From a virus, in IMG/VR virus record IMGVR_UViG_3300021963_009201, positions 126,034 through 190,033 of that record: DNA of 64,000 bases; one strand, 5' to 3'. Below, one piece after another: positions 34,255-36,962 of this stretch. Under the pieces are notes generated by a model, which saw only the letters and a list, made by a program, of their open reading frames with translations, was not told where the DNA came from and did not search any database. The position numbers and the translations under genes were made by a program. Position 1 is the stretch's first letter; each line of letters starts with the position of its first letter.

Positions 34255-34317
34255 TATATCCTCCCTGGATACGGCTTAGTGAGACTACTGTTTAATCGTG
34301 CGTAGTCTGTTGGCACG

Positions 34318-34356
34318 GTTATGATCTAATTTATATACCGCATGTAACTCTGCGGT
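34318..34356 (-). ncRNA. unknown 39-nt pseudoknot motif A, copy 1
   Basis: ACCGCA-GAGUUACA-UGCGGU-AUAUAAAUUAGAUCA-UAAC. Confidence 0.7.
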
Positions 34357-34365
34357 GTAATGCTC

Positions 34366-34770
34366 CTAGCTCGGATCGCCAGGGTACTCTACGGGAACCG
34401 GCGTATTGCCTCGTCCCACATTTTTCCATCCCTTTGACAAGCACAGTTCCCTTGACCACACAGTTGCGTAGTCAGTCTCTGTCTTGATGACAATATAGTC
34501 ACCAGGCATCATTGAGCGAATACCCAATGGGGGTTGATGATCGGGGTTCATTCCGTTCATCACGGTAAATGTGTACTCTCTGATGTCGATTTCTCCTTCT
34601 TCAAGGCGAAACTCAAATGTGTACACTTCGGTATACGAGAGTTCATCGAGTTCCAACCCGGTCACATCTCGCGTACCCATGGTCATCGAATCAAACATCT
34701 CACTAGAACAGATGTCGTCAATAACCGAGTATTCACGGTAAAACACTTCCACAAAGATGTGCGTACCCAT
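34366..34770 (-). CDS. hypothetical acidic protein
   Basis: CCAGGGAGG RBS. Confidence 0.7.
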   Translation of the reverse strand: MGTHIFVEVFYREYSVIDDICSSEMFDSMTMGTRDVTGLELDELSYTEVYTFEFRLEEGEIDIREYTFTVMNGMNPDHQPPLGIRSMMPGDYIVIKTETDYATVWSRELCLSKGWKNVGRGNTPVPVEYPGDPS

Positions 34771-34805
34771 AATATCCCTCCCTGGGATAGTTGTTGGTTA
34801 GTGGT

Positions 34806-34844
34806 GCCATGATCTAATTTGTGTACCGCATGTGGCTCTGCGGT
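34806..34844 (-). ncRNA. unknown 39-nt pseudoknot motif A, copy 2
   Basis: ACCGCA-GAGCCACA-UGCGGU-ACACAAAUUAGAUCA-UGGC. Confidence 0.7.
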
Positions 34845-34858
34845 TGTGATCAAGACCT

Positions 34859-35176
34859 TCAGAGATAATCTCGTGGATCCAGATCGTAGTATCCCGAATC
34901 CAGATCCTCCCGGTACTGTCCGAGAGCATGCTGCTGGTCCTCACGCTCACGAACGGAGCACTTGTGGTTGTAGACTGTACCATCGGCGCAGTCATCACAG
35001 CCATCGTCACCGCACGTGTCGCAGTACGGGGACCAGTCATCACCATACTCAGGGCAGGTGCACTTTGCCATCTTTTTCACCTCCTTGTGATGATCGCAGT
35101 ACTGCTGACCTGCAGGGACTTCATCCCCACAGATTTCCTTCTCAGGTTCGTTGAACCCGTATCCGCAGATGCTCAT
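34859..35176 (-). CDS. Cys-rich small protein (start reassigned to MSICGYGF)
   Basis: GGAGG RBS before 35176; several Cys/His pairs. Confidence 0.7.
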   Translation of the reverse strand: MSICGYGFNEPEKEICGDEVPAGQQYCDHHKEVKKMAKCTCPEYGDDWSPYCDTCGDDGCDDCADGTVYNHKCSVREREDQQHALGQYREDLDSGYYDLDPRDYL

Positions 35177-35210
35177 AGCATCCTCCAAGATGATATTGTT
35201 GGATGTTGGC

Positions 35211-35249
35211 GCCATGATCAAATTTGTATACCGCATGTGGCTCTGCGGT
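35211..35249 (-). ncRNA. unknown 39-nt pseudoknot motif A, copy 3
   Basis: ACCGCA-GAGCCACA-UGCGGU-AUACAAAUUUGAUCA-UGGC. Confidence 0.7.
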
Positions 35250-35277
35250 CGAGGTTTAACCCTTGTCCTGGATGGGT
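35250..35277 (-). ncRNA. 28-nt H-type pseudoknot motif D, copy 2
   Basis: ACCC-AU-CCAGG-ACAA-GGGU-UAAA-CCUCG; abuts motif A copy 3. Confidence 0.55.
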
Positions 35278-35283
35278 AGTGAA

Positions 35284-35481
35284 TCAGCTGTGGCGCCAGC
35301 GAATGTCTTCCTTGTCGAAACACCCGAGGTCCATGCAGTGTTGGACGCAGTGGAGTTCTGTATCTTCTCCGTAGTATCCAACAAAAATGCCGTGGAATAC
35401 TGCTTCATGGTCCTTTTGGCAGACGTCGCAAACCGCAAAGGTCTGATAGACGTCGTACTCTCCTGTATCGAAGTTACTCAT
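35284..35481 (-). CDS. small Zn-binding protein
   Basis: CDVC and CVQHC; GGAGG RBS. Confidence 0.65.
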   Translation of the reverse strand: MSNFDTGEYDVYQTFAVCDVCQKDHEAVFHGIFVGYYGEDTELHCVQHCMDLGCFDKEDIRWRHS

Positions 35482-35535
35482 TTGTTATCCTCCAAGATAA
35501 CTGTTGAGTAGTTTTGGCCGGACTACTCGTTAACC

Positions 35536-35587
35536 GGAGTTCCCCGCGAAGGAATCGAACCTTCTAATTTCTACACCAGTACGGGGA
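35536..35587 (-). ncRNA. tRNA-like mini element B, copy 1
   Basis: UCCCCG-UACUGGUGUAGAAAUUA-GAAGG-UUCGAUU-CCUUC-G-CGGGGA-ACUCC. Confidence 0.65.
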
Positions 35588-35592
35588 TGAGA

Positions 35593-35844
35593 TCAGAGGT
35601 CGAACTTCAATTGCTCGACTTCCTCATATGTGTCGAGGTTGATAAGTACATCATCAACCTGGGCCCATCTACCGCCAACACTCCTGCTACGAGCCTGGTC
35701 AAGTCCGGCCAAGAAACCGGAAAGATTAAGTCGGTAGTGAAGATTGCAAAGGCGATAGATTAACCCATTACGGGTAATCGTACGCCCTGAGGCCACTCGA
35801 TTGTTGCAAGAGTGACCACGCGTTGTGATCGCACTGCAGTTCAT
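35593..35844 (-). CDS. small Cys/His protein
   Basis: CSAIT.RG..C...LC.LH; GGAGGUG RBS. Confidence 0.65.
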   Translation of the reverse strand: MNCSAITTRGHSCNNRVASGRTITRNGLIYRLCNLHYRLNLSGFLAGLDQARSRSVGGRWAQVDDVLINLDTYEEVEQLKFDL

Positions 35845-35847
35845 TAC

Positions 35848-36126
35848 TCACCTCCCTTCGTTGTCTCGAAGCCACTGCTGGACCTGAGCTGGATTGTCTT
35901 GCATGTACTTCAGCATCTTGGCATCGCGCGCATTGGTCCAATCAATGTAGACCAACACGAGGGTGACAAGGGTTACCACAAGGAGTGCAATACCAAACAT
36001 TCCAAATGGCGTCAATTGCTTGTTTTCTTGATACACAGTATCCTCCCAGATAACTGTTTCTTGTGCCTCAAAATCTACTGCGTCCATCATTGCATCCAAC
36101 AATGGGTCTGATTCATAAACTTCCAT
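35848..36126 (-). CDS. small membrane protein (start reassigned to MEVYES)
   Basis: UAGGGAG RBS; single TM segment. Confidence 0.7.
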   Translation of the reverse strand: MEVYESDPLLDAMMDAVDFEAQETVIWEDTVYQENKQLTPFGMFGIALLVVTLVTLVLVYIDWTNARDAKMLKYMQDNPAQVQQWLRDNEGR

Positions 36127-36140
36127 TGTATATCTCCCTA

Positions 36141-36196
36141 GCTGTTTCTTGTGCCCCACAATAGGACACTCATCAGGGCGTTAATTCGCCGACAGC
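36141..36196 (-). ncRNA. type III hammerhead ribozyme HH-1 (predicted cleavage after C36191)
   Basis: GCUGU-C-GGCG(AAUUAA)CGCC-CUGAUGA-GUGUCC(UAUUGUG)GGGCAC-AA-GAA-ACAGC. Confidence 0.85.
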
Positions 36197-36224
36197 CCAG
36201 GTTTAGCCCTTACCCTGGATGGGC
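36197..36224 (-). ncRNA. 28-nt H-type pseudoknot motif D, copy 1
   Basis: GCCC-AU-CCAGG-GUAA-GGGC-UAAA-CCUGG; abuts HH-1. Confidence 0.6.
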
Positions 36225-36231
36225 GTAGAGA

Positions 36232-36492
36232 TCAGTATTCCTTGACCTCAATTACCGACATGGCCGTAACTCTAATCTTAGAGTTGGGATCCTGCCGGTC
36301 TTTCTTCGTTTCAGCCAGATACTCATCGCGAGCCTGGCAATCATCGAAGATCCAGCCTGAAGTAGGAACCTTGCAAAAGTTCCCGAATTCGTCCAGGCCA
36401 TGAAGAAAGTGGGTTTCTTCGTCCCACACTTCCCACTTCACTCCATGGTGGGATTCCATGCAGTTAAAGCAGAAGGATTCTTCATTTTCCAT
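36232..36492 (-). CDS. small Cys-containing hypothetical protein
   Basis: CFNC; GGGGGUG RBS before ATG at 36492. Confidence 0.65.
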   Translation of the reverse strand: MENEESFCFNCMESHHGVKWEVWDEETHFLHGLDEFGNFCKVPTSGWIFDDCQARDEYLAETKKDRQDPNSKIRVTAMSVIEVKEY

Positions 36493-36525
36493 ATTCACCC
36501 CCTTTCAGTGTTGGTAGTTGGTGAA

Positions 36526-36572
36526 TGGAGTTCCCCGCAGAGGAATCGAACCTCTGTGCAACCATTCGGGGA
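36526..36572 (-). ncRNA. tRNA-like mini element B, copy 2
   Basis: UCCCCG-AAUGGUUGCA-CAGAGG-UUCGAUU-CCUCUG-CGGGGA-ACUCCA. Confidence 0.7.
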
Positions 36573-36619
36573 GGTAGACATACGTTGATGGGGGTATGTC
36601 AGCCCCAGGTATTACTTGT

Positions 36620-36862
36620 TCAGGCAGACTGAGTCGCGGGATCATACTCGACCCATTGCTCAATCCGGCGTCCATCCCTTGTAGTGCAGGTAAACATGAT
36701 ATTACCTGGTAAATCAATACAGATGGTCACATCGGTATACATTGGTTTGTCACCTTCCTTATAGTTAAGATACACTGAGTACTGTTGCGGATACACTTGA
36801 GTAGACTCAAACTTAACCTCGTTGCCACGAAGGGTGTTGATGGTTCCATTGATGTATGACAT
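36620..36862 (-). CDS. hypothetical protein
   Basis: UAGGGAG RBS directly after HH-2. Confidence 0.7.
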   Translation of the reverse strand: MSYINGTINTLRGNEVKFESTQVYPQQYSVYLNYKEGDKPMYTDVTICIDLPGNIMFTCTTRDGRRIEQWVEYDPATQSA

Positions 36863-36876
36863 TGTATTTCTCCCTA

Positions 36877-36931
36877 GTGTTTCTTGTGCCCCGTTGTTAG
36901 GACACTCATCGGCCTGTTAATTCAGGGACAC
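36877..36931 (-). ncRNA. type III hammerhead ribozyme HH-2 (predicted cleavage after C36927)
   Basis: GUGU-C-CCUG(AAUUAA)CAGG-CCGAUGA-GUGUCC(UAACAACG)GGGCAC-AA-GAA-ACAC. Confidence 0.8.
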
Positions 36932-36962
36932 CCAGGGAAGGGTGTATTGGAGGCAACAATGA

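Follow-up and report, generated by a model that had tools for sequence, protein, structure and literature searches.

The intergenic gaps of an early operon in the virus record IMGVR_UViG_3300021963_009201 (IMG/VR) are occupied by folded RNAs that are conserved among related phages, stand in a fixed order and exchange their central module before orthologous genes. The window analyzed here is the last 64 kb (64,000 nucleotides, record positions 126,034 to 190,033) of this 190-kb linear record, and all of the operon features listed lie on its minus strand. We consider it probable that the gaps form an RNA insulator kit, by which one early transcript would be converted to single-gene (in one case two-gene) mRNAs having decay-resistant ends.

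The operon runs from a leader through a rhomboid gene and seven small open reading frames (ORFs) to an 876-aa polymerase ORF. Seven gaps of 88-127 nt (36962-36863, 36619-36493, 36231-36127, 35592-35482, 35283-35177, 34858-34771 and 34365-34255) separate these genes and the sole other gene junction, 35847-35845, is 3 nt. Re-reading of the coordinates confirmed the gene order and gaps described in an initial annotation, which had proposed that four repeated element types occupy the gaps and that every gap holds a cutting device. Fuzzy and covariance-model searches across the 190-kb genome recovered the repeats (three copies of motif A and two copies each of the hammerhead, the tRNA mimic B and pseudoknot D), and, pseudoknot H excepted, found no copies elsewhere in the genome. 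All seven gaps do hold folded RNAs, but the kit had been undercounted: pseudoknots E, F, G and H, the hairpins that enclose Shine-Dalgarno (SD) sequences and the remnant of a further cassette had been missed. The claim of a cutting device in every gap was not supported, as a recognizable cutter is present in four of the seven and the other three contain only uncatalogued pseudoknots (A, D and G). In transcription order the gaps contain HH-2 (HH, hammerhead); E and B2; D1 and HH-1; B1 and F; D2 and A3; A2; and A1 and G. Pseudoknot H, which follows the polymerase gene, adds to this set. The elements are as follows.

36872..36937, minus strand: HH-2, type III hammerhead fold; predicted cut 36927/36926; AA between C11.1 and G12; U4C
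36577..36607, minus strand: pseudoknot E in the post-stop slot; H-type, 5+7 bp, compensatory change in L005
36532..36572, minus strand: tRNA mimic B2; 6-bp acceptor and 6-bp T stem, T-loop, D-loop-like UGG; no anticodon arm or CCA
36197..36224, minus strand: pseudoknot D1 in the post-stop slot, abutting HH-1; variation in stem 1
36141..36196, minus strand: HH-1, type III hammerhead; canonical CUGAUGA; AA before GAAA; predicted cut 36191/36190
35541..35587, minus strand: tRNA mimic B1; longer D-like loop, one A-G mismatch at the helix junction
35506..35537, minus strand: pseudoknot F, after B; 4-5 + 7 bp, compensatory changes in both stems
35250..35277, minus strand: pseudoknot D2; one C-C mismatch in stem 2, unlike the relatives
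35211..35248, minus strand: motif A3; 38-nt H-type pseudoknot, uncatalogued
34806..34843, minus strand: motif A2; covariance model and covariation
34318..34355, minus strand: motif A1; two compensatory changes in stem 2
34282..34317, minus strand: pseudoknot G, directly 3' of A1; 5+7 bp, both stems compensatory, 6 copies
31592..31619, minus strand: pseudoknot H, directly past the polymerase stop; in nearly all close relatives, stem 2 covaries
36493..36526, 35501-35484, 35205-35179, 34789-34773 and 34272-34256, minus strand: SD-enclosing hairpins; RNAfold -5.6 to -11.1 kcal/mol

Homologues of the polymerase with 38-98% identity gave 17 usable loci (loci and contigs are cited by L numbers). Close relatives have the same operon with differing small genes and the same modules recombined, and both the elements and covariation are present in the 17 related loci. 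Judged from these alignments, the elements are conserved RNA structures with covariation. Order was counted in 95 cassettes from 18 loci; the counts include orthologous gaps and hence are not independent. A D, E or H pseudoknot just past the stop codon is followed by a central device, then by an F, G or K pseudoknot, and last by the SD hairpin. The central device is a type III or type II hammerhead, the tRNA mimic B, a long hairpin called J or pseudoknot A. D, E and H invariably come first, F occurs only after B (12 of the 13 B cassettes), G, G2 and K occur only after A, and the hammerheads have no second pseudoknot after them. A is found in 43 gaps and hammerheads, B or J in 36 gaps, with no gap having both. 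Before the same gene family the alternatives are D+A or J, D+A or D+B+F, a type III or a type II hammerhead, and B+F or E plus a type III hammerhead. That hammerheads, tRNA mimics and long hairpins interchange before the same gene fits a shared processing role. J, found in relatives only and absent from the window, consists of two hairpins, first a long one interrupted by a small internal loop and then a short one. By eye it resembles T7-type RNase III sites and hairpins in the early region of S-CBP4, although this is a lead only. In the distant relative L100 the leader can still be recognized by eye and the plan of one cassette per gap is kept with a different kit (long hairpins, a 6+6-bp tRNA mimic and another motif). 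The same locus (L100:1394-6000) has a motif of ~45 nt, not in Rfam, that is repeated five or six times before SD hairpins.

The hammerhead stems are 99.5% paired in 13 copies, with two-sided changes at 6 of 15 pairs, and the GUC (NUH triplet) and GAAAC are invariant across these copies. The CUGANGA core is intact in HH-1 and in 12 of the 13 copies, the window HH-2 alone having U4C. Every copy (13/13) carries an AA insertion before GAAA, and the register of stem II is fixed by compensatory changes in L005. The predicted cuts, 36927/36926 and 36191/36190, fall at the coordinates given by the initial annotation. The gap following the rhomboid gene in L003 contains a type II hammerhead with a canonical core. 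The conserved core, together with the canonical type II hammerhead that can take the place of the type III form in one and the same gap, suggests that the hammerhead family is active. The window hammerheads appear to be hammerhead variants that fall below the Rfam cut-off, and HH-2 may be slow or dead.

In B the acceptor stem stacks on the T stem to give 12 bp (98.3% paired, two-sided changes at 4 of 12 pairs). The T-loop is canonical and invariant and the connecting loop contains UGG. These are the features of a t-element (an acceptor plus T helix of ~12 bp, a T-loop and a D-loop GG), and L100 shows the same geometry. Twelve bp is also the helix length measured by RNase P. B resembles a t-element and by this analogy would be cleaved by RNase P or RNase Z, the predicted RNase P cuts being 36573/36572 and 35588/35587. 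Neither B1 nor B2 is called a tRNA by ARAGORN or RF00005, and the exact B pattern gave zero matches in IMG/VR. It could be argued that the folds are freed as small RNAs, such as tRNA-like decoys or sponges for host defence proteins, with punctuation incidental. Cuts on both sides would free B, and in cyanopodoviruses several folds are stacked in the leader ahead of the first gene. However, B has no anticodon arm, and the modules come one set per gap, tied to a ribosome-binding site, rather than in an array. We find this possibility far-fetched.

A generic H-type pseudoknot scan gave five matches on the minus strand of 34255-36962, whereas 40 shuffles gave a mean of 0.23 and a maximum of 2; the same scan of the plus strand of 30-39 kb gave zero matches. 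The D-H pairings were judged by inspection (D was read by hand, and G2 and K are loosely defined). The outer pair of D stem 1 is G-C, A-U, U-A or C-G among 15 copies, and in E, F, G and H compensatory changes preserve the two stems. The positions of D-H are those expected of end-protectors, not of cutters. H-type pseudoknots are known to impede RNase E scanning on 5'-monophosphorylated RNA (PMC9943677). The conserved pseudoknots (A and D-H) lie at the boundary of presumed protected RNA, as do exonuclease-resistant RNAs (xrRNAs). A further H pseudoknot is situated 17 nt 5' of a genuine tRNA-Ile, an RNase P site, a placement that independently fits a 3'-end shield. Just upstream of tRNA-Ile, window 14906-15010 (minus strand) holds two H-like pseudoknots with a possible third fold between them. 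A D-type pseudoknot is present in an unrelated short viral contig (L019:987-1019, minus strand). Five of the gaps end in a hairpin enclosing the SD sequence. Stop-codon read-through pseudoknots were considered and rejected, as the spacing past the stop ranges from 2 to >12 nt and the downstream frames differ.

Motif A is a 38-nt H-type pseudoknot of 5+4 bp. Among 60 distinct copies 99.3% of cells pair and 6 of the 9 pairs show two-sided changes (0/500 shuffles); slid-register controls pair only 18-31%. U-G wobbles indicate that the structure belongs to the coding strand. Fourteen columns, many of them unpaired, are invariant in actinophage and cyanophage copies. Rfam gave no match to motif A at E<=10 in the window, nor at the gathering threshold in 15 other loci; the snoRNA and ycf2 matches at E<=10 in the window are due to chance. 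A TATAAT-type promoter reading of A was rejected, as that stretch varies freely while the pairs covary.

Motif A was found in about 55 IMG/VR contigs. It precedes the polymerase of the 38%-identical relative and is present in the early leaders of the cultured T7-like cyanophages S-CBP1, S-CBP4, S-SBP1, P-SSP6 and P-SSP10:

L054:562-601, L055:2999-3038, L057:1499-1536, L058:1499-1533 and L059:547-586: motif A in cultured cyanophage leaders

It also occupies two consecutive gaps, 4-15 nt past the stop, in unrelated phages and proviruses (L069:12266-12657, L078:2902-3195 and L094:5474-5950). A tRNA-like fold follows A in P-SSP6, P-SSP10 and S-SBP1, and a real tRNA follows it in L076. Weaker second copies stand directly after predicted sigma70 starts in P-SSP6 and P-SSP10. 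In most cyanopodovirus loci examined A is single-copy; 12 of 43 A gaps contain tandem A+A one base apart, and some copies (L007, P-SSP10) lack the A-rich part of loop 3. An exact-pattern search of GTDB genomes did not find the motif, nor was it found in L100 or in the initial 9 kb of P-SSP7 and Syn5. Pattern matches in L066/L068, L079 and L089 were discarded because they fail the covariance model. The cyanopodovirus leaders of L075, L098, L024 and L083 contain more conserved folds with no Rfam match, at distances from A of ~150 nt upstream and 80 nt downstream: long imperfect hairpins, an internal-loop hairpin and a pseudoknot-like module having CUGAUGA without GAAA.

What motif A does is judged from its sequence and placement. 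The chances are roughly even that it is a roadblock at which host nucleases stall; a host endonuclease site seems improbable, and some other role about as unlikely as self-cleavage. A roadblock is likelier than self-cleavage given the tandem copies and, in cyanopodoviruses, the positions right after predicted starts or 5' of tRNAs and tRNA mimics. Against a roadblock, A occupies the cutter slot in this phage family and D+A+G mirrors D+B+F. The alternative is strict punctuation: every gap is cut, A itself is a cutter (a new ribozyme or a host-endonuclease site in the AU-rich loop 3) and D and G or K are its shields. The absence of any gap shared by A with a hammerhead, B or J (0/43), its middle place in D+A+G, its replacement of J and B before the same genes and its invariant unpaired columns in phages of two host groups all fit this reading. 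Twister, pistol and hatchet were themselves found through context shared with known ribozymes (PMC6765202), and a pistol ribozyme is present in this genome too (RF02679, 59.7 bits; window 25963-26039, minus strand), lying ~190 nt upstream of tRNA-Met and kept together with that tRNA in L005, L006 and L012. However, at 38 nt A is smaller than the known natural ribozyme classes and no Rfam class matched it. Moreover, a cutter would have no need of tandem A+A or of a place immediately 5' of tRNAs or tRNA mimics, and the A-rich part of loop 3 is dispensed with in L007 and P-SSP10. We regard strict punctuation as doubtful.

The insulator reading, with A as a roadblock, would work as follows. From the arrangement of the elements we infer cleavage, blocking and effects on timing. 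A single transcript, probably synthesized by a phage polymerase, would cover the operon. Hammerhead self-cleavage would leave a 5'-OH, a poor substrate for the 5'-monophosphate-dependent RNases E and J, and we propose that the hammerheads have no second pseudoknot because such an end needs no further shield. B would be cut by host RNase P (perhaps RNase Z) and J by RNase III, giving 5'-P ends, and we propose that this is why pseudoknot F or a hairpin follows. Past the stop, D, E and H would shield the new 3' end from PNPase-type exonucleases. At motif A an end would form without a dedicated cut, by host nucleases stalling at the roadblock. Each gap would thereby shield the 3' end for the upstream gene and provide the downstream one with a decay-resistant 5' end close to its ribosome-binding site. 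As a by-product, the repeated cassettes would allow small genes to come, go and change places, every one bringing its own ends and ribosome-binding site.

The enzymes invoked depend on the host, which is most likely an actinobacterium, as inferred from two WhiB genes (window 199-381 and 18086-18253, both minus strand) and from the psbA search of the genome, which found none. Actinobacteria have RNases E, J, III, P and Z and PNPase. The genome carries many tRNAs plus a transfer-messenger RNA (tmRNA; window 3763-4155, minus strand), the predicted tag of which is unusually long (23 aa), acidic and ends in ALV.

Several observations weigh against the insulator reading. The invariant AA insertion departs from the hammerhead consensus, in which GAAA directly follows C11.1, and it is absent among the insertions named in the consulted part of PMC3088659. 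The Rfam scan of the gaps, proposed in the initial annotation as a check, gave HH-1 below cut-off (24.8 bits versus 48.5 for RF00008, Hammerhead_3) plus T-loop fragments; HH-2, with its U4C change, was undetected, and motif A was likewise without a match. B lacks a D stem and CCA, and its helix is 6+6 rather than 7+5. H or D alone fills 16 gaps, which indicates that a cutter is not obligatory. The covariation counts come from related sequences and thus overstate the number of independent events. Finally, RNA cover of the operon was sought in three estuary metatranscriptome contig sets and none found was real, a result uninformative either way, which leaves RNA ends and cleavage unseen.

The cassettes also have a history as DNA, recorded in the ORF at 36126-35848. 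This ORF is an in-frame fusion in which an N-terminal part equal to that of one L005 gene is followed by a cassette remnant and then by a second gene. The GTG of the remnant is the true gene start in L020-L022.

36034..36067, minus strand: dead eighth cassette; hammerhead 3' end, SD hairpin and GTG start inside the ORF (deletion scar)

Variable gene content, this scar and duplication of the polymerase gene are the marks of cassette-bounded shuffling, and the cassettes also mark gene-shuffling units, like the promoter-early stem-loop (PeSL) cassettes of T4-type phages (PMC2839356). One could go further and hold that the cassettes act mainly as DNA, as repeated 30-60-bp recombination units with RNA structure secondary. 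Nearly every relative has different genes between the cassettes, the in-frame deletion scar ends in a hammerhead remnant, a tandem polymerase duplication in L003 and L004 is bounded by cassettes and the PeSLs provide a precedent. Recombination, however, needs no compensatory changes, coding-strand G-U pairs, intact catalytic core or fixed 5'-to-3' order; many different modules would lower homology, and A is single-copy in most cyanopodovirus loci. Recombination explains neither the covariation nor the order, and a mainly DNA role seems quite improbable.

Control of elongation or translation (antitermination, pausing or cleavage-gated SD unmasking), rather than of RNA lifetime, would be another use for such folds. 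The SD sequences lie within hairpins in five gaps, the extended stem III of HH-2 overlaps the SD region, and A opens T7-like early operons, a position at which antiterminators of the put type are known to act. However, neither sigma70 promoters nor terminators were called on the coding strand of the seven gaps, and such control would leave hammerheads, tRNA mimics and RNase III-like hairpins in one slot unexplained. We judge this reading very improbable. The missing promoters and terminators, together with the polymerase fold given below, support the earlier view that this is one early operon ending in an RNA polymerase gene.

The operon begins at the start of a GC-richer block. The leader contains no sigma70 consensus on its coding strand (37668..37790). 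The small ORFs, rhomboid excepted, have no family match, and the label of "host-takeover genes" given to them earlier was a guess. The genes and leader are:

37668..37790, minus strand: leader, probable early promoter region; AT-rich to GC-rich boundary, block aligned in L001, L003 and L010
36963..37667, minus strand: rhomboid-family protease, 234 aa; PF01694, E=2e-11
36620..36862, minus strand: ORF of 80 aa, no family in Pfam/PHROG searches
36232..36492, minus strand: ORF of 86 aa, no family in Pfam/PHROG searches
35848..36126, minus strand: ORF of 92 aa, chimeric by alignment with L005 and L022
35593..35844, minus strand: ORF of 83 aa, no family in Pfam/PHROG searches
35284..35481, minus strand: ORF of 65 aa, no family in Pfam/PHROG searches
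34859..35176, minus strand: ORF of 105 aa, Cys-rich, no significant family in Pfam/PHROG searches
34366..34770, minus strand: ORF of 134 aa, family g2, directly before the polymerase gene in most relatives
31624..34254, minus strand: single-subunit two-barrel RNA polymerase, 876 aa; AlphaFold (AF2) model, Foldseek and invariant columns

The polymerase sequence gave zero matches in Pfam, PHROG, PDB and INPHARED. Its AF2 model (predicted local distance difference test, pLDDT, 81) matched QDE-1 in Foldseek (E=1.9e-8, probability 1.0) as well as RDR2, crAss-like phi14:2 gp66 and Thermus phage gp64/gp62, which places it in the double-psi beta-barrel polymerase fold; the template modeling (TM) scores are low, 0.25-0.39. 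The D427-G428-D429-D430 (DGDD) motif is invariant, the first Asp of DxDGD being replaced. The model identifies the 876-aa ORF as a single-subunit two-barrel RNA polymerase with a QDE-1/P23-45-like fold, so that the polymerase assignment of the initial annotation is borne out by fold despite the absent sequence matches. L003:4226-10260 and L004:421-6506 carry tandem diverged copies of the two-barrel polymerase with two small cassette-bounded genes between them. A plus-strand ORF of 1448 codons with a DFDD motif starts at ~38737 of the full record, outside the window. In P23-45, according to the consulted part of PMC10770324, a second two-barrel RNA polymerase, not part of the virion, is encoded in a pre-early unit that a virion polymerase transcribes. 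The likeness to the operon described here lies in an early unit encoding a two-barrel polymerase, the gp64/gp62 fold match and the second large ORF with DFDD; RNA cassettes are not reported for P23-45 in that source.

Parts of this strategy have precedents. In T7, the early transcript spans a series of small genes and then the phage RNA polymerase gene, and RNase III cuts it into monocistronic mRNAs; the early regions of SPO1 and SP82 also have RNase III sites. The operon plan resembles that of T7, and the J hairpins of the relatives and the hairpins of S-CBP4 look like RNase III sites by eye, but T7 relies on one host enzyme and one element type, whereas the window has ribozymes, tRNA mimics and pseudoknots and no J. 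The closest precedent for the hammerheads is the work of Perreault et al. 2011 (PMC3088659), in the consulted part of which clustered hammerheads flank single phage or prophage genes or short blocks, three arrays cleaved in vitro, 2-kb native transcripts were cleaved and cutting of a transcript to single genes was proposed. Variable genes are flanked there as here, but those arrays, as far as consulted, contain hammerheads only, whereas here the hammerhead is one of four or five exchangeable modules, accompanied by ordered pseudoknots and an AA insertion. Thus, the earlier statement that the combination is unseen in described phages needs qualification, since clustered phage hammerheads are published; the mixed kit was not found in the literature consulted. 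Theta ribozymes process phage tRNAs.

In MALAT1 a protective triple helix lies just 5' of a tRNA mimic (mascRNA), and RNase P/Z cuts form the end; the D, E and H folds stand before B in the same way. The t-elements of plant mitochondria, tRNA-like but not serving as tRNAs, form mRNA ends (Forner et al. 2007, PMC1920247). Both t-elements and MALAT1 are eukaryotic or organellar, whereas B has a 6+6 helix without a D stem and is one option within a phage operon. The PeSLs (Arbiol et al. 2010, PMC2839356) are cassettes of a sigma70 promoter plus a terminator. They resemble the cassettes described here in being repeated between small variable early genes and mediating shuffling; unlike them, the window gaps on the minus strand have neither signal called.

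In chloroplasts, bound proteins of the PPR10 type are intercistronic barriers, and tandem copies are common in xrRNAs. By analogy with both, a compact fold or a bound protein would define RNA ends by stalling nucleases. Motif A is likened to xrRNAs by fold and position, not by sequence. We know of no natural RNA-only nuclease barrier in phage mRNA, so that A would be new also in this role, to which we give about an even chance. If instead A were a ~38-nt self-cutting pseudoknot ribozyme in a shield-cutter-shield code, a new RNA class of actinophages and cyanophages, which we view with considerable doubt, it would be a self-cutter smaller than the known natural classes and interchangeable with hammerheads, tRNA mimics and RNase III hairpins. 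Our literature search, in which subscription papers and supplements were thinly covered, found no description of motif A or of a mixed, ordered and exchangeable kit; the AA insertion and motif A may already be listed among hammerhead variants or in large phage-RNA catalogues.

The strategy is thus known in kind from clustered phage hammerheads and T7, and the new part is the exchangeable mixed kit plus the uncatalogued A, a widespread RNA that could be a new class. As motif A is present in cultured cyanophages, its role is accessible to study in actual infections. Engineered insulators built from ribozymes and tRNAs have a natural parallel in this kit, which may also supply compact mRNA-stabilizing parts. 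What self-cleaving ribozymes do for phages and bacteria has been named as an open question (PMC6765202). The swapping of modules before the same genes is a natural experiment bearing on the function of such elements, the common output of which we read as a defined, protected mRNA end.

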